A DNA stretch of 64,000 nt from Mycoplasmatales bacterium (lineage in GTDB: Bacteria; Bacillota_I; Bacilli_A; Mycoplasmatales; G965222545): contig OZ244954.1 of NCBI GenBank assembly GCA_965222545.1, forward strand, positions 559,945 through 623,944, read 5' to 3'. This document shows positions 1,873-21,975 of the stretch, piece after piece. A program made the position numbers and the translations under genes. The notes under the pieces were generated by a model that was not told where the DNA came from, ran no database searches, and was given only the letters and a program-made list of their open reading frames with translations. Every line of letters starts with the position of its first letter. Positions within the stretch are counted from its first letter, which is position 1.

Positions 1873-3558
1873 TTATTTACTTTTTGCCGTTTTTATTTTA
1901 AGAAGACGTTTTTTCTTTTTAGAGAAATATAGATAACTACCTACTATAATTCCAATTACTAAAACACCACCAATTAATCCACCAATAATAGCTCCTGTAT
2001 TATTATTATTATGAGAAGGACTATTATAGGGTGTAAGTTCAGTCATAGGAATGTAAATATTCATCATAGCAGGTGTAAGTGTTGTTCCTAAAGTTTCTTT
2101 AAAAAGAACTGATTTTCCATCACTTCCAAGTTTAATTCTACCAATTAAAAGAGTACCATTTTTATCTTGAGAAATAGAATAAACACTAGCACCGTCAACT
2201 GAACTATATCCATTTCTATCAACAACTACTCAATCATCACCTTTCCCATCTTTTGAATAAAATAAAGATTTTTGTCCATAACTTGTTAAAAAGGTTCCTC
2301 CGATTCAAAGACTTCCATCACTTGCTTGAAATAATGTATTAAGTTGTTGTTTATTATTCTTATCACTTTTAACTCCAAATTTACTAGTGTCAACTTTTTT
2401 TCAAATATGACCAGGACCACCTTTTAGGCAATAAATATTTTGTGAATAATCATGAAATATAGGAAAAGGTGGTGCAGTATTAGATACTAAAGCTCAAATA
2501 GTTTTATCGTTTGTTTGATAAATCAAATTAACTGCAGTATCATATTTAGCAAAAATATCTGATTGTTCATCAGTTCAATCTGTTATTGTATCCCAGCTTT
2601 TGCCTTTTTGTAAATAACATAAAGATTGTACGGAATTATTTGACATTGTAAATCCCCCGATTCAAATAGTACCATCAGTAGTTTGTTTAATCGTATTTAT
2701 TGATGGACCATTAAAAACCTGGCTATTATATATTGATGTTGTACTTTTTGTACTAAATTTTGTTACTTCTACAAATTTACTAGTATTATCTACTTTCCCG
2801 TTTTCTGTTCGATATAATGATGATGATTCCGTATAACTTCTACAAAATCATCCGCCAAATCACATTGCATTATCTTGTGTTTGATAAATTGTTTTAATAA
2901 TAGGAACAGGGTCACCATTATTATTTCCTTGGATAGGTTTTGATGTAATTCCTATTCATGATCCTTTTGCATTTAAATAAAATAAAGATTGATCATTTTC
3001 TTTACCAAGATTAACGCCACCAATAAATAATATACCTTCATTACTTTCAAAAATAGAATAAATAGTTGCTCTAAATCCCACTTTGGCATTACCACTATTA
3101 CCAGCGCCAAAAAGTGTTGGTTCAACAGGTGCTCAATCATCACCTTTTCCGTCATTTGAACAATATAATGAAGAAGGTAAAGTTGCTGGTACATTATTTT
3201 TATAATTTAATTTAGGATCTGAAGAATTTATATTGTCTTTTATATTATCTAATGGTACAGATATTCAAAGTTTTTTATCGCGACTTTCATATGTCGTTAA
3301 AATATTATCACTACCAGAACTTTGTAACTTATTATCTGGATCTGCATTAGATCAGCTATTTTCTAAATCTTTATTTCTTCATTTATTAAAATTATTTTTT
3401 ATTTTAGAAGAAACATTACCTTTTGTTTGCTTATAATTTGTATTTAATGTGTTTGTTTTATAATTATTATTCTCAATAATTATAATGGGTGTAATTAATA
3501 TAGTAGTAGTTATTAAAATACTAATTAGCGTTATTCTTTTTTGTTTTATATTTTTCAT
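1873..3558 (-). CDS. membrane-anchored beta-propeller-like repeat protein, array copy 2 (561 aa)
   Basis: Near-identical to copy 1 at 1740 bp offset, 1686 nt in frame. Differs by one fewer AAT (Asn) codon and a few substitutions. Confidence 0.85.
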
Positions 3559-3609: not shown

Positions 3610-5277
3610 TTATTTACTTTTTGTCGTTTTGATTTTAAGAAGACGTTTTTTCTTTTTAGAGAAATATAGATAACTACCTACTATAATTCCAATTACTAAA
3701 ACACCACCAATTAATCCACCAATAATAGCTCCTGTATTATTATTATGAGAAGGACTATTATAGGGTGTAAGATCGGTTATAGGAATGTAAATATTCATCA
3801 TAGCAGGTGTAAGTGTTGTTTCTAAAGTTTCTTTAAAAAGAACTGATTTTCCATCACTTCCAAGTTTAACTCCACCAACTAAAAGAGTACCATCTTTTTC
3901 TTGAGAAATAGAATAAACACTAGCACCATCAACTGAACTATATCCTTTTGAATCAACAACTGCTCAATCATCACCTTTCCCATCTTTTGAATAAAATAAA
4001 GATTTTTGTCCAGTTTTACCCATTGAAAAAGTTCCACCAATTCAAAGACTTCCATCATTTGCTTGAAATAATGTATTAAATTGTTGTTCACTTTTATCTC
4101 CAAATTTACTAGTGTCAACTTTTTTTCAAGTATGACCAGTACCACCATCTAGACAATAAATGCTCTGTGAATAATCATGTAATAATGGACTATTTGGTGG
4201 TGTATTAGATACTAAAGCTCAAATAGTTTTATCGTTCGTTTGATAAATTAAATCAACAGCAGTACTATCATTTTTACCAAAAATATCTGATTGTTCATCA
4301 ACTCAATCTGTAGTTGTGTTTCAGTTTTTACCTTTTTGTAAATAACATAAAGATTGTACAGGACTACTTGGTATTGCATATCCTCCAATTCAAATAGTGC
4401 CATCAGTAGTTTGTTTAATCGTATTTACTGATGGGCCTTTAGAATATTGACTATTATATATTGATGTTGTACTTTTTGTACTAAATTTCGTTACTTCTGC
4501 AATAATAATACCACTAACTTTCCCATTTTCTTTTCGATATAATGATGCTGATGCTCCAATAAGATTATTTTTAGGAAATCATCCTCCAAATCACATTACA
4601 TTATCTTGTGTTTGATAAATTATTTTAGTAATAGGAGCAGGATGACCATTACCTATTCCTTGAAAAGGTTCTGATGTAAGTCCTATTCATGATCCATTTC
4701 CTTCTAAATAAAATAAAGATTGATCATTATTTTTACCAAGATTTACACCACCAACAAATAATGTACCTTCATTACTTTCAAAAATTGAATAAATAGTTGC
4801 TCGATATCCCTTTTCCTCTTTACCACTATTACCAGCGCCAAAAAGTGTTGGTTCAACAGGTGCTCAATCATCACCTTTTCCATCGTTTGAACAATATAAT
4901 GAAGAAGGTAAAGTTGCTGGTACATTATTTTTATAATTTAATTTAGAATTAGAAGGATTTATATTATCTAATGGCACAGATATTCAAAGTTTTTTATCGT
5001 GAGTTTCATATGTTGTTAAAATATTATCACTACCAGAACTTTGTAACTTATTATCTGGATCTGCATTAGATCAGCTATTTTCTAAATCTTTATTTCTTCA
5101 TTTATTAAAATTATTTTTTATTTTAGAAGAAACATTACCTTTTGTTTGCTTATAATTTGTATTTAATGTGTTTGTTTTATAATTATTATTCTCAATAATT
5201 ATAATGGGTGTAATTAATATAGTAGTAGTTATTAAAATACTAATTAGCGTTATTCTTTTTTGTTTTATATTTTTCAT
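3610..5277 (-). CDS. membrane-anchored beta-propeller-like repeat protein, array copy 3 (555 aa)
   Basis: Same architecture, 1668 nt in frame with TGA=Trp. Closest to copy 4. Confidence 0.85.
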
Positions 5278-6998: not shown

Positions 6999-8762
6999 TT
7001 ATTTTTTTATCTTATTTTTAATTGAAGAATGTGCTTTAGTATGAGTCGTTACTTTAGTAAAAAAATGTTTTAATAAAGGAATTTGTTTTAGTTTATGAAC
7101 TACAAAAGCAATAACTTTTTCTCTTTTCCCTTTTCTTTTTTTCTTTAATAAATAAGTTATTCCTATAGCAATAAAACCTAATATAGATAATACAGTTACT
7201 ATAGAAATAATAATAATTAATGAATAACCATTAGCACCATTTAGTTTTATAAGATGTAATATGGGCAAAGCTGGTGTAAGAATACTCATGGCTGGTGTAA
7301 TAATATTTTTTACTATGTTTGCTTTATAAAGGACTATTTTACCAGCAGATCCAAGTTTAAATCCACCAACTCAAAGATAACCGTCATCACTTTGACGTAG
7401 AGAATAAACGCAAGCTCCATAAATTGAACTTGAACTATATCCGTTAGTATCAATAGGTTTTCAATCATCACCTTTTCCATCACCTGATCTAAATAAGGTT
7501 CTCTGTCCACCAGACTTTAATAAGAATGTTCCTCCGATTCACAAACTACCATCGCCTGTTTCAAATAATATATTAAATTGTTGTTTAACATTTCCCAAGC
7601 TTTTATTTCCAAGATCACTTGTATCTTCTAGTTGTCAGTAGTGACCAATTCCACCATTTAAGCGATAAAGTTTGTTAGAAGAATTATAAAATATAGGATT
7701 AATTGCTGGAGTAATAGATACTAATAGTAAAATTGATTTATCTTTTTTTTGATAAATAAAATTAACAGTGCTATTAATATGAGCAAAAATATTTGTTTCT
7801 TCATTAATTCAATTTGCTGCATCTTTTCAACTTTTGCCTTTTTCTAAATAACACAAAGATTCATTAAAATTAATTCCCATTGAGTGTCCACCAACTCAAA
7901 TAGTACCGTCAGCAGTTTGTTTAATTATTTTAATTGATGGACCATTAAAATATGTACTATGGTTAGGTTTTCTTCCGCTGAATTTTGTTACTTTTTCATA
8001 TTCAGTTTCATCATTTATTTTCCCATTATCTGCTCTATATAGTGATGAAGAACCATTATAATCACCATCGGGATATCATCCGCCAAATCACATTGCGTTG
8101 TCTTCTGTTTGAGAAATTGTTTTAACTACCGGCGAAGAACCCTCATCTTTTATTTGTTCAAAAGGATATTGCTTAACTGCTGTTCATTTTCCACCTGAGT
8201 TTAAATAAAATAAAGATTCATTGCCTTGTTCACCAAGATTTTTACCACCAACGAACAATACTCCTTCTTTACTTTCAAAAATTGAATAAATAGTTGCTCT
8301 AATATTTGTCGGCTCATTCCCGTCCTTGCCAGCACCAAAAAGTGTTGGTGCAATAGGAGTTCACTCATTACCTTTTCCATCATTTGAACAAAATAAGGAA
8401 GTAGGTAAAGCAGCAGATGTATTATTTTTATAACCTGGTTTAGGATTTGAAATAGTTCTAATATTTAAATTATCTAATGGTGCAGATACTCAAAGTTTTT
8501 TATCAGCAGTTTCATATGTTGTTAAAACATTATTAGGAGTAGACTTTCATAACTCGTTATTTGCGCCACCGTTAGATCAAGCATCTCCTAAATTATTTTT
8601 TCTTCATTTATTAAAATTGTCTTTTGTTTTAATAGAAACATTATTGCTTGTTCCCGGTGTATTTATTTTATAATTATTTTTCTGAACAATTATAACTGGA
8701 CTAATTAATATAACAATTCCGATCAAAATATTAAATATTTTTAGAATTTTACTTATTTTCAT
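6999..8762 (-). CDS. membrane-anchored beta-propeller-like repeat protein, divergent array copy 5 (587 aa)
   Basis: 1764 nt in frame with TGA=Trp. Hand translation shows the same signal anchor (MKISKILKIFNILIGIVILISPVII), WFGGW/WVGG/WIGG repeats and a C-terminal TM, but a longer basic tail. Confidence 0.8.
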
Positions 8763-8872
8763 AAATTTATTATAATATAATTTTAAATTATTATTATTAT
8801 TTAAATTTTATCAGTTTTTTATATTTTAATAAAAATTAAATTTAAATTTTATAATATTTAAAAAGAGAAAGA

Positions 8873-10669
8873 ATGAATAAATTATTAACAAAATTACCAA
8901 AAATTGGAATAAGACCAATTATTGATGCAAGAATGAATGGAGTAAGAGAAGAAAATGAAAAACCAACAATGGATTATGCAATTTTACTTAAAAAAATAAT
9001 TGAGAAGAATTTGCATCATCCGTCTGGAGAAAACGTTGAATGTGTTATTTCAGATACTACAATTGGAAGATATTCTGAAGTAGCAAAATGTCAAGAAAAA
9101 TTTTCTAAAAATAATGTTGGTGTTTCAATTAGTATTACGCCATGCTGATGTTATGGGATGGAAACAATTGATACAACTCCTGGAATACCTAAAGCAATTA
9201 TTGGGGTAAACGGTACTGAAAGACCTGGTGCAGTTTATTTAGCAGCTGCTGCTGCTTGTCATGAACAAATTGGTGAACCTGTTTTTACAATTTATGGAAA
9301 AGAAGTAAAAGATAAAGAAATGCTAGAATTTGATAAAGATGTATTAGAAAAAATACTTCGTTTTGCAAAAGCAGGATTAGCACAAGCTACAATGAAAAAT
9401 AATGCATACCTTGGTATTGGTGGAACATCAATGGGAATTGCGGGGTCTCAAGTTGTACCAGATTTCATAAATGATTATCTTGGAATGAGGTATGAAGTAG
9501 TTGATATGAGTGAAGTAGCAAGAAGAATTAAAAAAAATATTTTTGATGAAGTAGAATATGAAAAAGCATTATCATGAGCGAAGAAAAATTGTTTAGAAGG
9601 TGATGATTTAAATGCATCAAAAAATCAACAAACAAGAGAGCAAAAAGATAACTCTTGAAAAGACTCTATAAAAATGACTCTCATTATTAGAGATTTAATG
9701 ATTGGAAACCCCAACATAAGTAAAAAATGATATGAAGAATCATTAGGACATAATGCATTAGTTTCAGGTTTTCAAGGTCAAAGACAATGAACTGATTATA
9801 TGACAAACGCTGATTTTTCTGAAGCAATATTAAATTCTACATTTGATTGAAACGGAATAAGACAACCATTTATGGTAGCAACTGAAAATGATTGCATGAA
9901 TGGATTATCAATGTTACTTGGATATTTACTTACTGGAAAAGCACAACAATTTTCTGATGTTAGAACATTTTGAAGTAACGAAGCAATTAAAAGAGTAACT
10001 AAAGAAGATTCTACAGGTATAACTAAAAAGAACGGTGGAATGATTCATCTATGTAATTCAGGTTCTACATCATTAGATTATACTGGTGCACAAATGACAA
10101 AAGATGGCAAACCAACTGTAAAAGAGCACTGAAATGTTTCGCAAAAAAATGTTACTGAATGTTTAAAGGCAACAAAATGATGTGCTGGTCTTTTAGAATA
10201 TTTTAGAGGTGGTGGATGATCTAGTATGTTTATTACAAATGTTAACATGCCAGTTACTATGTCAAGATTAGCTTGAATAAAAGGTCAAGGACCTGTTTTA
10301 CAAATAGCTGAAGGTTGAACTGTTAAAGTGTCAGATAAAATTAATGAAATTTTAACAAAAAGAACAAACCCAACTTGACCAACATCTTGATTTGTTCCAA
10401 AAATTTTAAATAAAAATGGTTTTAAAACTGTTTATGATGTGATGAATAATTGAAGTGCAAACCACGGGGCTATTTCTCACGGACACATTGGTGCAGATCT
10501 TATAACATTAGCGTCAATGCTAAGAATTCCTGTTTCATTTCATAATGTTTCAGATGATAAAGTGTTTCGTCCTAAAGTATGAGGGTCATTTGGAACTGAT
10601 AATTTAGAATCTGCAGATTACAGAGCATGTAATAACTATGGTCCATTATTTGGAAAATGCAAAAAATAA
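8873..10669 (+). CDS. fucI: L-fucose isomerase (598 aa)
   Basis: Codon-by-codon read is continuous with TGA=Trp. Strong similarity to E. coli FucI motifs ([73 protein letters not shown]). Confidence 0.9.
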
Positions 10670-12291
10670 TGAAATATTATTTGGGAGTTGATGTTGGTAC
10701 TGGAAGTGCAAGAGTTGGCTTATTTGATGAAAATGGTTTATTAGTTTCTGTTGCTAAATCAGAAATTAAAACACAAACTTACGCTGGACTATATCACGAA
10801 CAATCATCACAAAACATTTGATCATCTATATGTATAGCAAGCAAAAAAATATTAAAAGAAAGTAAAATACCTATTGATAAAATTGTTAGTATTGGTTTTG
10901 ACGCAACATGTTCACTTGTTGCTTTAGATGAGAATTTCAAACCATTATCTGTTGGAAAACACAATGTAGATGAGTGAAATGTTATTTTGTGAATGGATCA
11001 TAGAGCAAATAAAGAAACACATCAAATTAATTTAAAAAAATATGAATCACTTAAATACTTAGGTGGACGAGTGTCAATTGAGATGCAACTTCCAAAACTT
11101 TTATGATTAAAAAATAATAAACAACAACTTTTTAATAAATTTCGGTATTTTTTTGATTTGCCTGATTTTTTAGTTTTTAAAGCAACCGGAAAAATAGTAA
11201 GGTCAAAATGTTCTCTTGGTTGTAAATGAAATTATATGCCGTTTGAAAAAAAATGAGATGAAAAACTATTATCAGATATTGGTTTAAAAAAGCTACTTGA
11301 TGATAAAAATAAAATTTCTAGTAATAAAATTGAGGCACCAACTAGATTAGCTGGTTCATTATCTAAAAAAGCAGCTGATGAATTAGGACTAAAAGAAGGA
11401 ACTGATGTTGCTGTATCAATGATTGATGCACATGCTGGTGCTCTTTCTATGCTTGGAACAGAATTAGAAAACTTTGATAAAATTGATAGTAGAGTAGCGT
11501 TAATTGCTGGTACTTCAAATTGCTTGATGACTTTAAGTAAAGATAAAAAATTTATTAATGGCTTATGAGGTCCATATTATGAAGTAATATTGCCTGGTTT
11601 TTGAACACAGGAATGTGGGCAATCTGCGTTTGGTTCATTAATAGACTATATTCTAAAATATTCAATTAGTATTAAGACCCATCTTCAAAAATACAGTATT
11701 GAATCTGTCTTTGACTATCTTGAAAAAAAGATTATGTCAATGCCTGACTGAGAAGAACTAACAAGTAATTATCATGTATTGCCATATTATTTAGGAAACA
11801 GATCTCCTTATTCAGACCCTACTTTAAAAGGGGTTGTATCAGGATTACAATTAAATACAAATTATGAATATGAAATAATTCAATATATAGCGACCATACA
11901 AGGTCTTTGTTATGAAGCGAGAGATATTATTGAAACACTAAATAATGGTGGATATAATATAAAAGAGATTGTGTTAACAGGTGGTTTTGTTCATAATAAA
12001 GTTTTCATTTATACATTAGCAAATGTTACTAATCTAAAAATAATTATACCTGAAGAAAAAGAAGCCGTTTTACTAGGTTCTGCATTAAATGCATACCTTG
12101 CTCATAATAATTCTGAAAAAGATTATATAAAAATTACTAAAAAGTTTGTTCGTGCTGATAAGCATAAAATTTATCCACATCCTAAGTTTAAAAAATATCA
12201 TGATAAAAAATATCAAATTTATAAAGAAATGCATAAGGATTATTTGAAATATAAAAAAATTATGAATCCCGAAACTTTAAAAAAATCTTAG
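10669..12291 (+). CDS. FGGY-family carbohydrate (pentulose/fuculose-type) kinase (540 aa)
   Basis: Start overlaps the fucI stop (TAATG). N-terminus is [20 protein letters not shown], plus DATCSLV and LTGGF motifs. 1623 nt in frame with TGA=Trp. Confidence 0.8.
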
Positions 12292-12399: not shown

Positions 12400-13557
12400 C
12401 TAAACTTTTTCTTTTAATCATTTTTCATATGATATATTACTTTTTTTAATATTATGTTCCTTACATAATAATTGAGCATTTGATAAGATTGTTCTTCCGC
12501 CTTCAGATCAAGGATCTTTATGGTCAAGTTCTAATTCATTATATGAGTCAATTCCACAACCTCTTTCATTACATTTTGATTTTATTTTATACATTGTATC
12601 TTTATGAGATTTAGTAAAAAATCTTTGTGAATGACATTGTAAATTCTTTGTCATCAATCTATCATTAAAAATTTTATGTACGTTAATATTTCATTTTTTT
12701 ATATCATTATCTTCTTTTATACAATTTTCATAATTTTCAATAATTTTTTCTATGTTTCATTTTTTATTAATAATAAATGATGAAAGTTCTAATATTAAAT
12801 CATCTCTGGGATTAGCAATTAACCTTTTTAAGATACCAAATAATTCAATTGTTTTGGCATAAATTTCGCCAGAAAAAAAATCATTATTTCTTTGTTTTTC
12901 TAATGAAGATCTTATTCTTAAACTTTTTGCATCACTCTCTTTTTCCTCTAATAATCCTAAATAACAGTATAAAAAATAAATTGTTTGCTCTCCTCTTCTA
13001 ATTTTTTTTATTCCATCGGTTACTCTTGATTTTTCATTTATATATTTTTCAAAGCCTTTAAATCATTTTCCATAAAATAATCCTCGTAAACATTCATATT
13101 CAATTAATGGAATACTATTTTTATTTATAGTATCGAATGATATTTCTTCATCTTCTCTACATCCTTTTCTTACTGTTACTTCAAACTCATATTCTAGTAA
13201 TTTTTGTTTTTGTGCTTGACTTAATGTAATAAAGGTAAATTCATCACTTTTTATTCTTGTAGTTATAACTATATTCTCTTTATTCGATGGATTACAAAAA
13301 TAATATAATGACAATATTCTCTGTTTTCCGTCATGAATATTATATGTGCCATTTTCATTTTTTCAGAAATAAAGTGCAGGAAGTCTTATCCCATATTCTA
13401 AAATGGATTTTATTACATTGCCGGCCTTCGTAATGCTACCATCATATACCCTTATCTTAGGTAAAATATGATAAATAAAATTCCTTTGTGTTGTATTATC
13501 ATAATATAATTTTCCGGATTCAATTCATTCAAAAATTTCCTTTACTTTAATTTTCAT
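12400..13557 (-). CDS. DUF262 (ParB/GmrSD-N-like, HDGKQR motif) - HNH nuclease fusion (385 aa)
   Basis: ATG at 13557 overlaps the methylase stop (TAATG) and TAG is at 12400. 1158 nt in frame. N-terminal ..YNIHDGKQRILSLYYF.. (DGQQR-type). C-terminal [32 protein letters not shown] (HNH). Confidence 0.75.
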
Positions 13558-14651
13558 TATTTTCTCCTTCTTCTTGCGAGTATACCGTGAAATCTAGGTA
13601 CCATTTTATTTGTAAATTTATGTTTACAAGGATTACGTTCTGGTTTTGTAGTGTTAAAAAATTTTTTATAATTTGTTCCATATCACTCAAAATCATCAGG
13701 ATTAAATTTATCAAATAAGCCGATAGAAGAAAAAAACCAATCATAATAATCATCAGGTAAAATTCCTACGTGTTTTATTCATATTGGATTTGAATTATCT
13801 TTCATAATAATGCTTTTTATTTTTTCATATTCACCAATATAATTTTTAGTTAAAAATCCATTATTATGTTTTTCGTAAACATTTTCATCAAAAGTAGTTA
13901 TTCAATCGCATGCAACTTTTTTCTTTTTTATATTTAATTCCATTTTATTAAGATCTCAATTTTCAAATTCGATACTTTTATGTCTCCCATATCCTAAATA
14001 TAATTCTTTTTTTCATAATTTTAATCCTACGCACGGATTTACCCTATTTATAAAAGCGGTTAGACTTATTAAGTTCACTTTTTCATTTACAACCTTATCT
14101 AAAAAAAGTCTCATTAAGCTAAACGGAGGATTAGTTATTATTAAATCATATTCATCAAAATTATATTTAAATGCGTCTATTCCTCTTCCTATAGCGGAAT
14201 TGTATCCACTAAATGTTCATTTTTTTATTTTTCATTCTGGAGCAAATGTTATAACGGCTTTTAAAAAATTACATCTTGGTCCTGATAATATTTTTCCATT
14301 AATTTCAAATTTATTCTCAGCCTTATTATATTTAAAAATTGCAGACTCATCCATTAATTCTGGTTCATTTTGTAAATTACCTTTATAAAGAAAACATTCA
14401 TCAACACCACCATTTTTATTAAACGTTAATGTTAATCCGTGAATTTCTGGAAATTCATCAAATAAATCTCAATCAAAAGGGCTTAAACCTGAAAAATTAC
14501 AAAAAAGCTCCTTATTATAATTAGATAATTCTTCAGTTATTGTTTGTAATGATGTATAAAACTCATCATTTTTTTTTGTTCCAAGGGGGGTAGTTTGACC
14601 ACTTTTATATTTTATTTTATTAATAATTTTAGTTTGTTTATTGTTAGCCAT
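13557..14651 (-). CDS. N6-adenine DNA methyltransferase, EcoRI-methylase-like family (364 aa)
   Basis: ATG at 14651 and TAA at 13557-13559, 1095 nt in frame. N-terminal KKNDEFYT. Catalytic motif DLIITNPPFSLMRLFL followed by ..LYLGYG. The ORF-track start at 14702 is rejected. Confidence 0.8.
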
Positions 14652-14660
14652 TATTTTATA

Positions 14661-14666
14661 ATTATA
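14661..14666 (-). promoter_or_regulatory. candidate -10 box (TATAAT) for the methyltransferase, ~10 nt upstream of ATG
   Basis: TATAAT on the minus strand. The same sequence is carried into the duplicated chimera (~18148). Confidence 0.3.
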
Positions 14667-14687
14667 TAATAAATTACTATATAAATT

Positions 14688-14713
14688 AAAAAAATCAACC
14701 AATGAATGGTTGA
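14688..14713 (-). terminator. rho-independent terminator hairpin (tcaacca-N5-tggttga plus T-run on minus strand)
   Basis: Perfect 7-bp stem at 14695-14701/14707-14713, followed on the minus strand by a T7 run. It lies downstream of the gene ending at 14742. Related hairpins occur at ~16021-16045, ~18182-18200 and ~19510-19535. Confidence 0.6.
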
Positions 14714-14741
14714 ATTTATTTAAATACTTTGATTTAAATTA

Positions 14742-15932
14742 TTAAACTAATTTAAAATTTTGTAAATAACTATAAAATTTATCATTTCCGATTTGTTGTA
14801 TGCTTGGCAATAAACCGTTGTGGAAATTAGTTCCAAAATTATTAAATGATGTTTTTAGATTATCATAGCTTATTACTCCTTCTATATGTCATCCAGCATG
14901 AATTACGTTTACACCAATTTGTGCAAATTGATTAATAATTATTTTAATTGGATTATTTTGATCAGTAAAAATACTTACTACATCTTTTATTAACGATACC
15001 ATTAGACCATCAACAGTTGGCATAAATTGTTTATTTATTACAGTAAAGATTATTTTTCTTTCAATAGTTGCAGGAATTCCTTGAGTTGATCTAAGTCCTT
15101 GAACATTTTTTAAATTAGCAACTGCATTTTTCCCAATATGGGGAATTTCAAAATTATTTAAAATAGTACTGAAATTTTTAACTTGAGTATCAATTGTTGC
15201 TTTAATTACATTAAATTGACCTTCACAGTGGTTTTGAATTGCATCAATCATTTGGTTTCTATTAACAAGTGGATTAAATACACCTATTGAGTTACTAATC
15301 ATTTCTGTAACTTGATGCTTTATTTTAAATTTTAGTCCATATCCATAATCTTCAAATTGATGAATAATTTTAGTTTTCGCGGGGTTTAAAAAGTCAGTGT
15401 TTAAAAAGTCAATTAAACCATTTATTCCTCTAATATTTAATATATCTATAAATTGTTCAGGTGTTAATTTATTGTGAGTTCCTGTTCCAAAACTAGTTAA
15501 TATGCTTACAAGCTTATTAACTAACTCTGTTTGTTCTTTTGCTATATCAGCAATTATTTTTACAAAATCGTCTGTTATTGTCTTATTAATTCCGTTTTGT
15601 AAAGTTTTAGGGAATGCTTTTTTAAAATCATTTTGAAAAGGTGTTTTAATAGCATTTAATGTGTTTGAAATACTTTTCAAAACTGGAACAGTAAAGTTAT
15701 TATTTAAATAATCACTAAATATTTTCCCATTTTCATTTAATCATTCAGGAAGTGTATTACCATCATCACCAAGATTATTATTTTTACTACCTAAATTATT
15801 AGTAATATTTGGAGTAAGTTGACTTGATTTTGAAGCCTGAGTCTTTAATATTGCAACGCTTGATGATGTTAAAATTAAACCACCCATTAGCAAGCTTATC
15901 AATATGTTTTTTTTAGTTTTTATGTTTTTCAT
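14742..15932 (-). CDS. secreted/anchored hypothetical protein, family P2, copy A (396 aa)
   Basis: ORFs 15741-15932 and 14889-15680 join in frame through TGA, and the gene continues past TGA at 14889 to TAA at 14742. N-terminal anchor MKNIKTKKNILISLLMGGLILTSSSVAIL. Core LTSFGTG..LTPEQFI..G.NGLID is shared with family P1. Confidence 0.75.
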
Positions 15933-16066
15933 TTTTTATTTTCCTTTTGTTTATATATATTTATTGTACCATAATAATTAAATATTCCAAATATTATAAT
16001 TTTAAATATAAAATAAAAAATTCAACCAATGAATAGTTGAATTTATTTTAATATACTTAATTTAAA

Positions 16067-17209
16067 TTAATAAGTTAATTTATAGTTTAATAGCTCATTA
16101 TAAAAACCATTATTTTCAATTTTTTTTATGTCTGCTAATAAACCATTACGAAATGAGTTTTCAAAATTAGTAAATGAATCTAATAAATCATTATATTTTA
16201 TAGTAATTCCAGGTGCATGATATCCAACACTTAAAGCATGTATACCAATTCTTGCTAACTGATCAAAAACTGATTCAACTGAATCTTCATGTGTTTTAAA
16301 AACACTTGTTACTTTACCTAATATAGATACCATTGAACGATCAATAGTTGGCATAAATACCTGATTCATTATGTTAAAGACTATTTTTCTTTTAATCATT
16401 CAAGCGCTTTCTTCAGGTTTTCTTTGGTTTTGAAGTTTTATTAAATTAATATTTACTTTTTTATTAGTATGAGGAATTTTAAAATCATATAAAACAAGTT
16501 TAAAGTTTTCTACTTGATAAGAAATTATTTTATAAATTTGACTATATTCACTATCTGATTGATTTTTAACAACATTAATCATTTTCTATTTATTAACATA
16601 CGGAATATTATTTGGAATTGATTCTCCAACTAGTTTTAACATTTCAGCTTTTATATATGATGTAATTTGATCAGCAAAATTTTCAAATTCATGAAGTAAT
16701 TTAATTTTTGCTGGTATTATACATTTATTATTTACAATATCAATTAAAGCATTTACTCCTTTTGTTTCATAAATATTAATGAATTCATCAGGTGTTATAT
16801 TATTATGGCCTTTACCTGTTCCAAAACTAGTTAATAAAGTTTTAAGTTTTTCAACTACTACCATTTGCTCTTTTGCTATTTTATCAAATACTTTTATATA
16901 TAAACGTGGTACTACAGAATCAATTTTTCCTCTTATAGCTTCAGGAAATGCATTTCTAAAATTATTATAAAATGGTACCTTAATGTTATTTAATGTACTA
17001 TCAATACCTTCACACATTGGATTAACAAAGTGACGAGTTATATGATTAGCAAGTCTTCCTCCGTTATCGTTCAATCATGCAGAAAGCGGATTACCACTTT
17101 CACTTGTTAAATTGCTAATAAAAACATTTGTAGTAGTTAGTTTTCTACTTCGAACTGCTTTAGTACTTAATATTGCTACACCTGATGTTGTTAAAATTAC
17201 ACCCGCCAT
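16067..17209 (-). pseudogene. family P1 paralogue, copy A, interrupted by in-frame TAG
   Basis: ATG at 17209 and TAA at 16067, 1143 nt. TAG at 16586-16588 where copy B has CAG (20076-20078). TGA at 16400 is read as Trp. Confidence 0.65.
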
Positions 17210-17360
17210 TGCTATACTTATTATTTTATTTTTTTTACCTTTATATAATTATAATATATTATAAATATTTAATTTAAATATATAAATAAATATAATATTA
17301 ATTTTTAGAAATATCTATTTTTTATTATCATTATCTTTGTTTTCTAATTCATCATTGCTA

Positions 17361-18138
17361 TCAGTATGCCTTTTTTTTAGCTACCTCTCCGGCTGCTGTT
17401 TCTTTAGCAATAACCTCTTTATTTAGATCAGCTTTATTCTTTTCGTCGACATCATGTTGTTTTTGAGCTTTTAACTTAATATCCTCTTTAGTTTCTTTGT
17501 TTAAGCCATAATTCAACAGTTCTGTTGGTTTATTAGCTTTTTGTTTCTTGATGGCTTGATATATTACCACTAGTCCTTTTTTCGCTCCGGGTATTGCACC
17601 TTTTACTAATACATAATTACTATCTACATCGATGTTGATAATTTCCAAATTTTGAATTGTCACTAGATTAGTTCCCATTCTACCTGGCATTTTTTTGTGT
17701 TTAAAAATTCTATTTTGAGTTATTGGTCCCATTGAACCAACCCCGTGGTGATAACCGGAACCATGACCTTTTGGTCCAATTTTATGTCCATATCTTTTAA
17801 TAACACCTGCGAACCCTTCCCCCTTAGTAATTCCTGTTACATCAACAAATTCTCCAACTTTAAAAATATCACTGCAACTAATTTTACTACCAAGATCGTG
17901 CCCAGTCATTCCTTTAATTTCTTTTGTATACTTAAATACATCAGAATTAGCTTTTTTAAAATGGCCAATTTGTGGTTTTATTGCTCTTTGTTTTTTAACA
18001 GGAGATATTGATAATTGTAATGCGTCATAGTTATCTTTACTATCAAACTCATCATTTTTTTTGTTCCAAAGGGGGGGTAGTTTGACCACTTTTATATTTT
18101 ATTTTATTAATAATTTTAGTTTGTTTATTGTTAGTCAT
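17361..18138 (-). pseudogene. chimeric gene: methyltransferase promoter plus first 31 codons fused to rplC lacking its first ~41 codons
   Basis: 18045-18138 matches 14559-14651 (methylase 5' end). 17361-18044 matches rplC 20804-21532. The junction ..NDEF|DSKDNYDALQ is in frame codon-to-codon, but C7/T3/A8 here versus C6/T2/A9 in the methylase puts the ATG (18138) out of frame. A T8 versus T7 run (17371-17378) changes the C-terminal tail. Confidence 0.75.
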
Positions 18139-18228
18139 TATTTTATAATTATATAATAAATTACTATATAAATTAAAAAAATCAACCAATAAATGGTTGA
18201 ATTTATTTAAATACTTTGATTTAAATTA

Positions 18229-19422
18229 TTAAACTAATTTAAAATTTTGTAAATAACTATAAAATTTATCATTTCCAATTTCTTGTATTTTTGGCAGTAA
18301 AATGTTGTGGAAATTAGTTCCAAAATGATTAAATGATATTTTTAAATTATCATAGTTTATTGCGCTTACTGGTAGAGTTCATCCAGCTTTAATTACGTTT
18401 ACACCAATTTGAGCAAATTGATTAATAATTATTTTAATTGGATTATTTTGATCAGTAAAAATACTTACTACATCTTTTATTAACGATACCATTAGACCAT
18501 CAACAGTTGGCATAAATTGTTTATTTATTACAGTAAAGATTATTTTTCTTTCAATAGTTGCAGGAATTCCTTGAGTTGATCTAAGTCCTTGAACATTTTT
18601 TAAATTAGCAACTGCATTTTTCCCAATATGGGGAATTTCAAAATTATTTAAAATAGTACTGAAATTTTTAACTTGAGTATCAATTGTTGCTTTAATTACA
18701 TTAAATTGATCTTCACAGTGGTTTTGAATTGCATCAATCATTTTGTTTCTATTAACAACTGGATTAAATTCACCTATTGAATTACTAATCATTTCTGTAA
18801 CTTGATGCTTTATTTTAAATTTTAGTCCATATCCATAATCTTCAAATTGATGAATAATTTTAGTTTTCGCGGGGTTTAAAAAGTCAGTGTTTAAAAAGTC
18901 AATTAAACCATTTATTCCTCTAATATTTAATATATCTATAAATTGTTCAGGTGTTAATTTATTGTGAGTTCCTGTTCCAAAACTAGTTAATGTACTTACA
19001 AGCTTATTAACTAACTCTGTTTGTTCTTTTGCTATATCAGCAATTATTTTTACAAAATCATTTGTTATTGTCCTATTAGCTCCGTCTTGTAAAGCTTTAG
19101 GGAATGCTTTTTTAAAATCATTTTGAAAAGGTGTTTTAATAGCATTTAATGTGTTTGAAATACTTTTCAAAACTGGAACAGTAAAGTTATTATTTAAATA
19201 ATCACTAAATATTTTCCCATTTTCATTTAATCATTCAGGAAGTGTATTACCATCATCACCAAGATTATTATTTTTACTACCTAAATTATTAGTAATATTT
19301 GGAGTAAGTTGACTTGATTTTGAAGCCTGAGTCTTTAATATTGCAACGCTTGATGATGTTAAAATTAAACCACCCATTAGCAAGCTTATCAATATGTTTT
19401 TTTTAGTTTTTATGTTTTTCAT
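18229..19422 (-). CDS. secreted/anchored hypothetical protein, family P2, copy B (397 aa)
   Basis: Same as copy A at +3490 bp, 1194 nt in frame. The signal segment is identical (ORFs 15741-15932 = 19231-19422). Confidence 0.75.
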
Positions 19423-19556
19423 TTTTTATTTTCCTTTTGTTTATATATATTCATTATACCATAATAATTAAATATTCCAAATATTATAATTTTAAATATA
19501 AAATAAAAAATTCAACCAATGAATAGTTGAATTTATTTTAATATACTTAATTTAAA

Positions 19557-20698
19557 TTAATAAGTTAATTTATAGTTTAATAGCTCATTATAAAAACCAT
19601 TATTTTCAATTTTTTTTATGTCTGCTAATAAACCATTACGAAATGAGTTTTCAAAATTAGTAAATGAATCTAATAAATCATTATATTTTATAGTAATTCC
19701 AGGTGCATGATATCCAACACTTAAAGCATGTATACCAATTCTTGCTAACTGATCAAAAACTGATTCAACTGAATCTTCATGTGTTTTAAAAACACTTGTT
19801 ACTTTACCTAATATAGATACCATTGAACGATCAATAGTTGGCATAAATACCTGATTCATTATGTTAAAGACTATTTTTCTTTTAATCATTCAAGCGCTTT
19901 CTTCAGGTTTTCTTTGGTGTTGAAGATTTATTAAATTAATATTTACTTTTTTATTAGTATGAAGAATTTTAAAATCATATAAAACAAGTTTAAAGTTTTC
20001 TACTTGATAAGAAATTACTTTATAAATTTGACTATATTCACTATCTGATTGATTTTTAACAACATTAATCATTTCCTGTTTATTAACATACGGAATATTA
20101 TTTGGAATTGATTCTTCGACTAGTTTTAACATTTCAGCTTTTATATATGATGTAATTTGATCAGCAAAATTTTCAAATTCATGAAGTAATTTAAGTTTTG
20201 CTGGTATTATATATTCATTGTTTATAACATCAATTAAGGCGTTTACTCCTTTTGTTTCAAAAATATTAATAAATCGATCAGGTGATATATTATTATGGCC
20301 TTTACCTGTTCCAAAACTAGTTAATAAAGTTTTAAGTTTTTCAACTACTACCATTTGCTCTTTTGCTATTTTATCAACTACTTTTATATATAAACGTGGC
20401 ACTGAAGAATCAATTTTCCTCTTATAGCTTCAGGAAATGCATTTCTAAAATCATTATAAAACGGTACCTTAATGTTATTTAATGTACTATCAATACCTTC
20501 ACACATTGGATTAACAAAGTGACGAGTTATATGATTAGCAAGTCTTCCTCCGTTATCGTTCAATCATGCAGAAAGCGGATTACCACTTTCACTTGTTAAA
20601 TTACTAATAAAAACATTTGTAGTAGTTAGTTTTCTACTTTGAACTGCTTTAGTACTTAATATTGTAACACCTGATGTTGTTAAAATTACACCCGCCAT
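19557..20698 (-). pseudogene. family P1 paralogue, copy B, frameshifted
   Basis: 1142 nt from ATG 20698 to TAA 19557, not divisible by 3. T4 at 20414-20417 where copy A has T5 (16924-16928). The N-terminal ~95 codons are out of frame with the rest. Confidence 0.65.
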
Positions 20699-20803
20699 TG
20701 CTATACTTATTATTTTATTTTTTTTATCTTTATATAATTATAATATATTATAAATATTTAATTTAAATATATAAATAAATATAATATTAATTTTTAGAAA
20801 TAT

Positions 20804-21652
20804 CTATTTTTTATTATCATTATCTTTGTTTTCTAATTCATCATTGCTATCAGTATGCCTTTTTTTAGCTACCTCTCCGGCTGCTGTTTCTTTAGCAATA
20901 ACCTCTTTATTTAGATCAGCTTTATTCTTTTCGTCGACATCATGTTGTTTTTGAGCTTTTAACTTAATATCCTCTTTAGTTTCTTTGTTTAAGCCATAAT
21001 TGAACAGTTCTGTTGGTTTATTAGCTTTTTGTTTCTTGATGGCTTGATATATTACCACTAGTCCTTTTTTCGCTCCGGGTATTGCACCTTTTACTAATAC
21101 ATAATTACTATCTACATCGATGCTGATAATTTCCAAATTTTGAATTGTCACTAGATTAGTTCCCATTCTACCTGGCATTTTTTTGTGTTTAAAAATTCTA
21201 TTTTGAGTTATTGGTCCCATTGAACCAACCCCGCGGTGATAACCGGAACCATGACCTTTTGGTCCAATTTTATGTCCATATCTTTTAATAACACCTGCGA
21301 ACCCTTTCCCCTTAGTAATTCCTGTTACATCAACAAATTCTCCAACTTTAAAAATATCACTGCAACTAATTTTACTACCAAGATTGTGCCCAGTCATTCC
21401 TTTAATTTCTTTTGTATACTTAAATACATCAGAATTAGCTTTTTTAAAATGGCCAATTTGTGGTTTTATTGCTCTTTGTTTTTTAACAGGAGATATTGAT
21501 AATTGTAATGCGTCATAGTTATCTTTGCTATCTTTAGTTTTAACTTGAGTAACTGTATTAGGTGTAACTTTTATTATAGTAACCGGTATTGCTTTACCGT
21601 TAATATTAAAAACCTTTGTTTGATTATCTTTTATTCCAATTAAACCATTCAT
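20804..21652 (-). CDS. rplC: 50S ribosomal protein L3 with Lys/Glu-rich C-terminal extension (282 aa)
   Basis: MNGLIGIKDNQTKVFN..GKGFAGVIKRYGH..GSMGPITQNRIFKHKKMPGRMG. Immediately follows rpsJ. Confidence 0.95.
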   Translation of the reverse strand: MNGLIGIKDNQTKVFNINGKAIPVTIIKVTPNTVTQVKTKDSKDNYDALQLSISPVKKQRAIKPQIGHFKKANSDVFKYTKEIKGMTGHNLGSKISCSDIFKVGEFVDVTGITKGKGFAGVIKRYGHKIGPKGHGSGYHRGVGSMGPITQNRIFKHKKMPGRMGTNLVTIQNLEIISIDVDSNYVLVKGAIPGAKKGLVVIYQAIKKQKANKPTELFNYGLNKETKEDIKLKAQKQHDVDEKNKADLNKEVIAKETAAGEVAKKRHTDSNDELENKDNDNKK

Positions 21653-21660
21653 ATTTTTCC

Positions 21661-21975
21661 TTAATTAATTTCAACACTTACACCAGCTGATAAAACTAAC
21701 TGAGATAATTCACTTAATAATGGTTTATTAGCGTTATCAACAACTATTAATCTTTTGTAGGTTCTACGTTCAAATTGTTCTCTACTATCTTTAAATTTAT
21801 GTGTTGCCCTTAAAACTGTAAATTTTTCTGTTTTAACTGGCAAGGGAATTGGTCCTCTTACTTTGGCACCATTTGATTTAATTATTTCAATAATTTTTTT
21901 AGCATTTCTGTCAATTATTTTACTATCAAAGCTGGTTAGCCTTATTTTTACAATTTTATTATTAATTTTACTCAC
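21661..21975 (-). CDS. rpsJ: 30S ribosomal protein S10 (104 aa), GTG start
   Basis: KIRLTSFDSKIIDRNAKKII..GPIPLPVKTEKFTVLRATHKFKDSREQFERRTYKRLI. Confidence 0.95.
   Translation of the reverse strand: MSKINNKIVKIRLTSFDSKIIDRNAKKIIEIIKSNGAKVRGPIPLPVKTEKFTVLRATHKFKDSREQFERRTYKRLIVVDNANKPLLSELSQLVLSAGVSVEIN

Follow-up and report, generated by a model that had tools for sequence, protein, structure and literature searches.

In the EcoRI restriction-modification (R-M) system, the endonuclease R.EcoRI is a PD-(D/E)XK enzyme, the methylase belongs to the Pfam family EcoRI_methylase (PF13651) and carries the motif NPPF, and the two genes form a mobile Type II cassette. DUF262 is a ParB-type domain known otherwise only from enzymes that depend on DNA modification or sense it. 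The 2008 and 2017 classifications of HNH nucleases contain no ParB-containing Type II family (PMC2441816, PMC5714182), and a 2025 study of DUF262 left open the question of whether methylase-paired ParB-DUF262 domains target nonmodified genomes (PMC12065111). Our literature search likewise recovered no named, characterized DUF262-HNH Type II enzyme with a cognate EcoRI-family methylase. Here we analyze such a pair, encoded between positions 12400 and 14651 of a 64,000-nucleotide (nt) stretch of a Mycoplasmatales genome (contig OZ244954.1, positions 559,945 to 623,944; hereafter, the window). Like the EcoRI system, it has a PF13651 methylase with NPPF in a two-gene mobile cassette; unlike that system, its nuclease is unrelated to R.EcoRI and combines a ParB-like domain with an HNH domain. 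We interpret the pair as a mobile, two-gene, Type II-like R-M cassette in which methylation would protect and the HNH nuclease would cut unmethylated sites, a reading to which we assign a probability of about 75%.

The methylase and nuclease genes

The features of the pair, given by their positions in the window, are the following.

13557 to 14651, minus strand: methylase gene, 364 amino acids (aa), ATG to TAA, with 8 in-frame TGA codons; a divergent EcoRI-family N6-adenine DNA methyltransferase
14121 to 14132, minus strand: NPPF codons (residues 174 to 177; AAT CCT CCG TTT), the catalytic motif IV of amino-methyltransferases
13564 to 13569, minus strand: AAGGAG Shine-Dalgarno sequence of the nuclease gene, 6 nt before its ATG
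13555 to 13559, minus strand: TAATG stop/start overlap (TAA at 13559 to 13557, ATG at 13557 to 13555, one shared base)
12400 to 13557, minus strand: nuclease gene, 385 aa, ATG to TAG, with 7 in-frame TGA codons; DUF262/ParB-Srx-like, helical, and HNH parts
13078 to 13557, minus strand: DUF262/ParB-Srx-like domain (about residues 1 to 160), from invariant columns and the GmrSD_N matches of the family
13318 to 13335, minus strand: HDGKQR codons (residues 75 to 80), read from the sequence
12613 to 13077, minus strand: all-helical middle (about residues 161 to 315), from helices spanning residues 164 to 304 of an AlphaFold2 (AF2) model, with a predicted local distance difference test (pLDDT) score of mostly 84 to 96
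12403 to 12612, minus strand: HNH (beta-beta-alpha-Me) domain (about residues 316 to 385), from PF01844 and invariant columns
12451 to 12525, minus strand: HNH core codons, ELDH(343-346)...GG...N360.QLLC365..HN369

The product of the first gene scores 50.6 bits on PF13651, above the cut-off of 26.4, and carries the (N/D)PP(F/Y) motif; together with the match of its family profile to M.EcoRI (99.8%, E 2e-30), this bears out the EcoRI-like N6-adenine methyltransferase named in a preliminary description of the locus. It also matches the PADLOC model MTase_II PDLC03297 (E 1e-11), which gives 571 bits on M.EcoRI itself, encoded on the EcoRI plasmid of Escherichia coli. The subfamily (alignment A2) shows no variation in the N-terminal DE.YT motif (D29, E30, Y32, and T33) or in N174, P175, and F177, and two Mollicute relatives have NPAF in place of NPPF. 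With just 24% identity between the window methylase and M.EcoRI, GAATTC specificity is not to be assumed; a literature search found no recognition motif for its subfamily.

The second gene encodes the nuclease, whose C-terminal domain, put forward earlier as a classical HNH, was recovered by a profile search with PF01844 at 28.3 bits (cut-off, 21.4). All 22 members of the nuclease family are above this cut-off, and none of them matches DUF1524 (PF07510). For the N-terminal domain, the window nuclease scores 28.3 bits on GmrSD_N/DUF262 (PF03235), below the cut-off of 33.2, and 21 of the 22 members match this model at E <=0.01. We assign the domain to DUF262 because of these family-wide matches and because of full-length homology to relatives that score 69 to 75 bits on it. 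The DUF262 domain of the preliminary description thus falls short of the Pfam threshold in the window protein taken singly and stands at the level of the family, where it is backed further by the profile-profile alignment given below. The PADLOC model REase_II PDLC03418 is matched at 57.5 bits (E 3e-16) over residues 34 to 174, and the match takes in only the N-terminal third of the model.

Across 22 diverse homologues (alignment A1), the invariant positions of the N-terminal domain are Q24-R25, D76-G77-K78-Q79-R80, and E137-E138..F141..N145, and those of the HNH domain are D345-H346, N360, N369, C329, C334, and C365. The former include the DUF262 signature, with an upstream QR motif and DGKQR (Lys for the first Gln of DGQQR); the full conservation of these signature residues of the ParB/Srx type speaks for a functional DUF262 domain. 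In the HNH domain, D345-H346, N360, and N369 are the predicted catalytic residues, and C329, C334, C365, and H368 likely form a zinc site; H368 is replaced by Cys in the homologue P0023, as would be expected of a metal ligand. Both motifs first noticed by eye, HDGKQR and ELDH..GG..N.QLLC..HN, are present as described.

The AF2 model of the nuclease (pLDDT 86.7) has an alpha/beta N terminus, a long helical middle, and a beta-beta-alpha C terminus, the last made up of strands at residues 342 to 346 and 361 to 365 and a helix at residues 366 to 375. A Foldseek search with the whole model returned weak matches (best E 2.5e-3), which give soft support only: the N-terminal part weakly resembles ParB-CTP, Noc, Spo0J, and sulfiredoxin, and the C-terminal part Gme HNH (4h9d), Cas-HNH, and McrA. 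BrxU and GmrSD structures were absent from the top 50 of these matches, and PDB sequence searches with both proteins and the family profile yielded nothing meaningful. The helical middle has no Pfam match and hence no family; judged from the model, it is a candidate for DNA-sequence reading and/or dimerization. The sole NCBIfam match, to an IscB HNH, was sub-threshold and was set aside as spurious.

At the junction of the two genes, the minus strand reads AGA AGG AGA AAA TAA TG AAA, with the AAGGAG sequence embedded in the last Arg/Lys codons (RRRRK tail) of the methylase. The TAATG overlap, exact at the positions given for it in the preliminary description, and the internal AAGGAG are operon signals by which the nuclease would be translationally coupled to the methylase, in agreement with the single operon proposed there. 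The junctions measured in related loci are -4, -1, +2, +8, and +11 nt, with the exception of one locus (L025) at 59 nt.

The reading frames rest on the choice of genetic code. The window has a G+C content of 24.8%, and open reading frame (ORF) calling with table 11 left only fragments in the region from 12400 to 14651; these calls, in which both genes are broken, were dropped in favor of table 4, under which the minus strand holds two intact ORFs (13557 to 14702 and 12400 to 13557). Window-wide coverage by ORFs of >=80 aa rose from 10,066 to 22,885 aa when TGA was read as Trp, and since it more than doubled, the window comes from a code-4 Mollicute. The in-frame TGA codons of the nuclease are codons 11, 65, 165, 267, 289, 350, and 380. 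Codons 65, 289, and 350 of these, together with codon 250 of the methylase, fall on invariant or nearly invariant Trp columns of standard-code relatives, which independently confirms both TGA as Trp and the reading frame. The host is a deep-branching Mollicute; the two proteins are encoded on a 641-kb contig, and its ribosomal protein L3 is <=56% identical to those of named species (Spiroplasma and relatives, at the level of Entomoplasmatales).

Pairing, mobility, and decay across related loci

Searches with the nuclease recovered 227 homologues, the best 120 of which are nearly all full length at 37 to 50% identity, and an exhaustive profile search recovered 48 clusters (50% identity) at E <=1e-30 and 565 at E <=1e-10. 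In every homologous locus examined, the methylase and nuclease genes are adjacent, over a range that spans Mollicutes, Clostridia, Bacilli, Bacteroidota, Alpha- and Gammaproteobacteria, plasmids, prophages, and phage contigs. Thus, all four distant nuclease homologues inspected adjoin an EcoRI_methylase gene amid unrelated flanking genes, and the methylase lies beside the nuclease in 12 of 12 loci among species-representative genomes, namely, metagenome-assembled genomes (MAGs) of Bacilli, Clostridia, Mycoplasmatales, and Ureaplasma and one Parabacteroides. Reciprocally, the close methylase homologues P0128 and P0137 adjoin a nuclease gene, often near an integrase, and a remote EcoRI-family methylase (P0146) does not. 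The methylase precedes the nuclease in most loci and follows it in L005, L006, L025, and L033 to L035, the last three being IMG/VR viral contigs; since both orders occur, the link is functional and no frozen accident. Over 13 loci, the pairwise identities of the two proteins correlate with Pearson and Mantel r = 0.93, a value reached in 0 of 5,000 permutations, which indicates that methylase and nuclease co-evolve. A metagenomic protein of 688 aa (P0360) carries EcoRI_methylase, GmrSD_N, and HNH in one chain; it is a single representative, and either a natural fusion or a read-through gene call, possibly an artifact. Taken from the sequences, the cassette is strictly co-inherited and horizontally mobile.

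These data bear on the possibility that the nuclease is a Type IV modification-dependent DUF262 enzyme that merely sits beside an unrelated or orphan methylase. The characterized nucleases that join DUF262 to a His-Me domain are modification dependent (PMC4619093, PMC12707154), and the weak GmrSD_N match of the window nuclease would be in keeping with such a function. Yet, whatever the phylum or mobile element and whichever the gene order, the same methylase family is adjacent in every locus, and co-evolution and the fusion protein tie the two further together. Moreover, the C-terminal domain is a PF01844 HNH with no DUF1524, and PADLOC files the family as Type II. We regard this possibility as extremely improbable, and in its stand-alone form it is effectively excluded by the co-occurrence data.

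More distant cassettes emerged from tblastn of plasmids and, with the Aeromonas cassette as the query, from a nucleotide-level search of E. coli genomes. They are encoded on a Sulfitobacter indolifex plasmid (nuclease WP_243254696.1 and methylase WP_243254695.1; 4-nt overlap), an Aeromonas caviae IncP plasmid (WP_202154986.1 and WP_202154987.1; 1-nt overlap), and a prophage-like region of E. coli A34 (WP_240766097.1 and WP_240766179.1; 1-nt overlap), as well as on Apilactobacillus kunkeei plasmids and one fecal phage contig. Many such pairs bear generic names in RefSeq, namely, "adenine-specific methyltransferase EcoRI family protein" and "DUF262 domain-containing protein" or "HNH endonuclease family protein." The window nuclease is 23 to 28% identical to the distant relatives from Sulfitobacter, Aeromonas, Apilactobacillus, and the fecal phage, and the window methylase is about 24 to 32% identical to the methylases of the distant cassettes. 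The three plasmid nucleases (Sulfitobacter, Aeromonas, and Apilactobacillus) score 69 to 75 bits on GmrSD_N and also pass the HNH threshold. On the nucleases, PDLC03418 gives 456 bits, from end to end, for Aeromonas, Sulfitobacter, and E. coli A34 and 305 bits for Apilactobacillus; on the methylases paired with them, PDLC03297 gives 392 to 408 bits. M.EcoRI shares 50% identity with the Aeromonas methylase, the partner of a DUF262-HNH nuclease.

An hhalign comparison of the window branch with the catalogued branch unified the two nucleases end to end (99.9%, E 4e-31, 332 columns), in a register that places DGKQR on DGQQR, QR on QREFVY, and the HNH motifs and helical middles on each other. By these comparisons, the window pair belongs, as a divergent branch, to a cassette family that PADLOC, a curated library of defense systems, already labels Type II. 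A Type II-like pair with an unusual nuclease architecture had been suggested at the outset; the pairing is borne out by adjacency, both gene orders, and co-evolution, and the architecture loses its claim to be unusual, since PDLC03418 covers the family. The pairing is widespread in sequenced genomes, and the window locus is a divergent member and not a new kind of system.

Several features of the related loci may be added. In a number of loci from Clostridia MAGs (L021 to L024), the cassette lies directly beside a tyrosine integrase. In L001, its neighbor is a small divergent HTH_3 gene, which may encode a controller (C) protein. Neither an HTH_3 gene nor an integrase adjoins the cassette in the window. 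In the closest Mollicute relatives (L009, L012, and L013, from Mycoplasmatales/Mycoplasmatota MAGs), the nuclease is about 497 aa long, with an extra C-terminal region of about 110 aa, and the methylases have NPAF where NPPF is expected; the proteins of this long-nuclease group are P0002 to P0004, P0009, P0122, and P0123.

Some loci are decaying. In a Mycoplasmatales MAG (L017, 221 to 1386), the nuclease gene is in three frameshifted pieces, and in E. coli 2015C-3121 (L031, 2631 to 5742), the insertion sequence (IS) IS1 splits it into a DUF262 and an HNH ORF and the methylase is intact, the whole lying within an island with CcdAB, PemK, and HsdM. E. coli STEC2018-553 gives the same short methylase match as 2015C-3121 (a match only). 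Loss of the nuclease first, in L017 and L031, is as expected if the nuclease is the dangerous partner and suggests the pattern of an R-M system. Such decay, along with the occurrence of the cassette on plasmids and prophages and beside integrases and IS elements, could also be taken to indicate an element that is selfish or decaying and at present plays no part in defense, be it an addiction module maintained solely by postsegregational killing or a silent remnant. The window ORFs are, however, intact, with all invariant residues and a Shine-Dalgarno sequence, and addiction and defense are compatible outcomes of the same mechanism. We see scarcely any likelihood that this is all the cassette amounts to.

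Proposed mode of action

As a Type II-like system, the cassette would work as follows. The EcoRI-family methylase would place N6-methyladenine (m6A) at a specific DNA site on the host chromosome, and the coupled nuclease would use its HNH active site to cut DNA that is unmethylated at this site, such as that of an incoming phage or plasmid. The DUF262 domain would bind and hydrolyze a nucleoside triphosphate (NTP) so as to gate or license cleavage, as in GmrSD, BrxU, and SspE (PMC4619093, PMC12707154), and would be wired such that methylation blocks the attack instead of triggering it. By analogy with these enzymes, binding and hydrolysis of NTP by this domain are most likely. The pairing of the same methylase family with the classical EcoRI nuclease shows that it acts as a protective methylase in a Type II system. 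For the cassette as a whole, we infer protection by methylation, an intrinsic sequence specificity of the nuclease, use of NTP, and expression of the cassette from its own promoter. Candidates for the reader of the DNA sequence are the helical middle region and the methylase itself, acting in a Type III-like complex.

Five points weigh against this interpretation. (i) The characterized DUF262 nucleases (GmrSD, BrxU, and SspE) sense modified DNA, and none is known that senses unmodified DNA (PMC12707154, PMC12065111). (ii) An analysis of palindrome underrepresentation over the 64-kb window gave no outlier and hence no recognition-site signal. (iii) Neither Pfam nor the AF2 model nor Foldseek revealed a recognizable sequence-reading domain in the nuclease. 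(iv) The PADLOC label "Type II" was not traced to a biochemically characterized enzyme. (v) In a Bacilli MAG (L007, 1685 to 5131, on a 1.01-Mb contig), an IS with a 343-aa DDE transposase (2332 to 3363) splits the methylase immediately behind NPPF, and the nuclease (4001 to 5131) is intact with all motifs; in a classical Type II system, a broken methylase with an intact nuclease should be lethal. In L007, this arrangement might be tolerated because the coupled nuclease is silenced by a polar effect, because another methylase covers the site, or because the insertion is recent. Alternatively, the nuclease may depend on its methylase.

Dependence of this sort would follow if the two proteins cooperated in the manner of Type III systems, the nuclease having no specificity of its own and being recruited or licensed by the site-reading methylase, with the ParB-like NTPase in place of the helicase motor. 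The paradox of L007 would then be softened, as the nuclease would be inert without the methylase. The nuclease consists of only ParB/Srx-like, helical, and HNH parts, with no recognizable DNA-reading domain, and the very tight co-evolution (r = 0.93), the near-universal coupling, and the apparent natural methylase-nuclease fusion would all fit such a complex. On the other hand, this methylase family also has an unrelated and self-sufficient partner in the EcoRI nuclease, co-inheritance of the cassette alone explains the correlation, and the conserved helical middle region of about 150 residues could be the reader. On balance, we consider cooperation of this kind unlikely.

The viability of L007 would be accounted for in another way if DUF262 sensed the m6A of the host as a signal that self is present and in response activated the NTPase and nuclease against unmarked DNA; a broken methylase would leave the nuclease inactive. 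SspE provides the precedent of a DUF262 nuclease with a genetic link to a modification module of the host (PMC12707154, PMC12065111). The nuclease domains nevertheless differ, with HNH in the one and DUF1524 in the other, and the nuclease-first decay of L017 and L031 suggests that the cost lies with the nuclease, as it does in an ordinary R-M system. We give activation by host methylation very little credence.

Returning to the Type II-like cassette, it is possible, and we put this forward only tentatively, that it represents the first DUF262/ParB-type nuclease that attacks unmodified DNA and is blocked by cognate m6A, with cleavage gated by NTP and the site read either by the helical region or through the methylase in a Type III-like complex. 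The window locus itself is unsurprising, and it is the biochemistry of its class that is unexplored. Given the settings from which DUF262 is otherwise known, the cassette is well suited to asking what role a ParB-type NTPase plays when methylation protects. To the window genome, the pair adds one intact and probably active restriction barrier, which bears on transformation and engineering of this minimal-genome Mollicute and on the interpretation of its m6A methylome.

Genomic setting and comparison with known systems

The cassette is situated between an L-fucose isomerase/FGGY kinase gene pair (8873 to 12291, plus strand) and a block of lipoprotein-like paralogues. Its G+C content equals that of the surroundings, no integrase or flanking direct repeats were found around it in the window, and an Rfam search of the window found nothing. 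The region upstream of the methylase contains the following.

14652 to 14741, minus strand: upstream intergenic region, with a terminator-like hairpin and then a TATAAT box
14695 to 14713, minus strand: terminator-like hairpin, which ends the preceding lipoprotein-like gene
14661 to 14666, minus strand: TATAAT box, 9 nt ahead of the methylase ATG

An alternative methylase start, the TTG at 14702, would give 381 aa and was rejected. Because the hairpin covers this TTG and the homologues begin at the equivalent Met, the ATG at 14651, which was implied by the coordinates first given for the gene, is the most likely start. The TATAAT box is a putative promoter of the cassette's own that would produce a near-leaderless mRNA; in a promoter scan upstream of the methylase, sigma-70-like matches were no commoner than in shuffles of this AT-rich region. 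Codons 21 to 28 of the methylase, on the minus strand, include a C6 run (14585 to 14590) and an A9 run (14569 to 14577), and a duplicated methylase remnant at 18 kb has C7 and A8 in their places. Since the tract lengths differ between the two copies, the runs are prone to indels, which might serve as an on-off switch of the methylase and of the nuclease coupled to it.

This remnant belongs to a tandem duplication of about 3.49 kb (14569 to 18055 and 18056 to 21544) whose copies are 94 to 99% identical. The duplication begins inside the 5' end of the methylase gene, and the cassette therefore predates it. Its junction joins the region upstream of the R-M genes and methylase codons 1 to 31 (18056 to 18138) to rplC from about codon 41, leaving a truncated second L3 copy (17358 to 18055) beside the intact rplC (20804 to 21652). 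The methylase fragment is frameshifted, and the methylase-rplC chimera is probably a pseudogene. The paralogues in the block are about 400 aa long with signal-peptide-like N termini (14742 to 15932, 16067 to 17209, 18229 to 19422, and 19557 to 20698; two copies are split into two ORFs), have no Pfam match, and fall into two types that are about 66 to 77% identical at the DNA level in places. Downstream of rpsJ (21661 to 21975) and rplC come the lipoprotein-like genes and then the R-M cassette; rplD-rplW-rplB, with which the S10 operon usually continues, is absent after rplC in the window. On the other side (6999 to 12291), a 587-aa membrane-anchored protein with Reg_prop beta-propeller repeats precedes the L-fucose isomerase and the overlapping FGGY sugar kinase, forming what appears to be a sugar-utilization module, striking for a genome of about 0.64 Mb.

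Among known systems, GmrSD, Eco94GmrSD, and BrxU resemble the window nuclease in combining, in one polypeptide, a DUF262 domain with a DGQQR-type motif, helices, and a His-Me-finger nuclease (PMC4619093, PMC12707154). They differ in their C-terminal domain, which is DUF1524 (PF07510) as opposed to a zinc-bearing PF01844 HNH, and in lacking a cognate methylase and attacking modified DNA, whereas the gene of the window nuclease is paired in every locus. The two marks of GmrSD-type Type IV enzymes, DUF1524 and a stand-alone gene without a methyltransferase, are thus both absent, and PDB searches gave no sequence match of the window nuclease to solved structures of the GmrSD family. SspE is comparable in that its DUF262 nuclease is the restriction arm genetically tied to a host DNA-modification module (PMC12707154, PMC12065111). 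However, its modification is phosphorothioate made by a multiprotein machine and its nuclease domain is DUF1524, as against m6A from a single methylase and HNH in the window; no relationship between the window nuclease and SspE was detected at the sequence level. KpnI, Hpy99I, PacI, MnlI, and HphI share the beta-beta-alpha-Me (HNH) module within a Type II enzyme but have other recognition modules, and neither of the two classifications that treat them mentions ParB or DUF262 (PMC2441816, PMC5714182).

A DUF262 domain is likewise shared with Menshen NsnA and PD-T4-2. The PADLOC NsnA model matches the window nuclease in the N-terminal domain only (E 8e-8, 30 bits) and gives 83 to 94 bits on the nucleases of the three plasmids and of E. 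coli A34. Menshen, however, has NsnB and NsnC as partners, whereas the neighbors in the window are the methylase, a sugar kinase, and lipoprotein-like genes, and a solitary NsnA-like DUF262 protein without HNH in Clostridium perfringens (L029) marks the NsnA family as distinct.

The likeness is greatest to the PADLOC-catalogued pairs, in which, as in the window, an EcoRI-family methylase is followed in the same order by a GmrSD_N(DUF262)-helical-HNH nuclease of about 360 to 390 aa, with the motifs QRxF.Y, DG(Q/K)QR, and DH..N..N and short overlaps of 1 to 4 nt; these pairs have DGQQR, as opposed to the DGKQR of the window, whose host uses genetic code 4. The pairing of an EcoRI-family methylase with a DUF262-HNH nuclease constitutes a coherent mobile cassette that extends from Mollicutes to E. 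coli prophages, and the window locus shares with Type II systems adjacent, co-inherited methyltransferase and endonuclease genes and an endonuclease homologous to a catalogued restriction endonuclease family.

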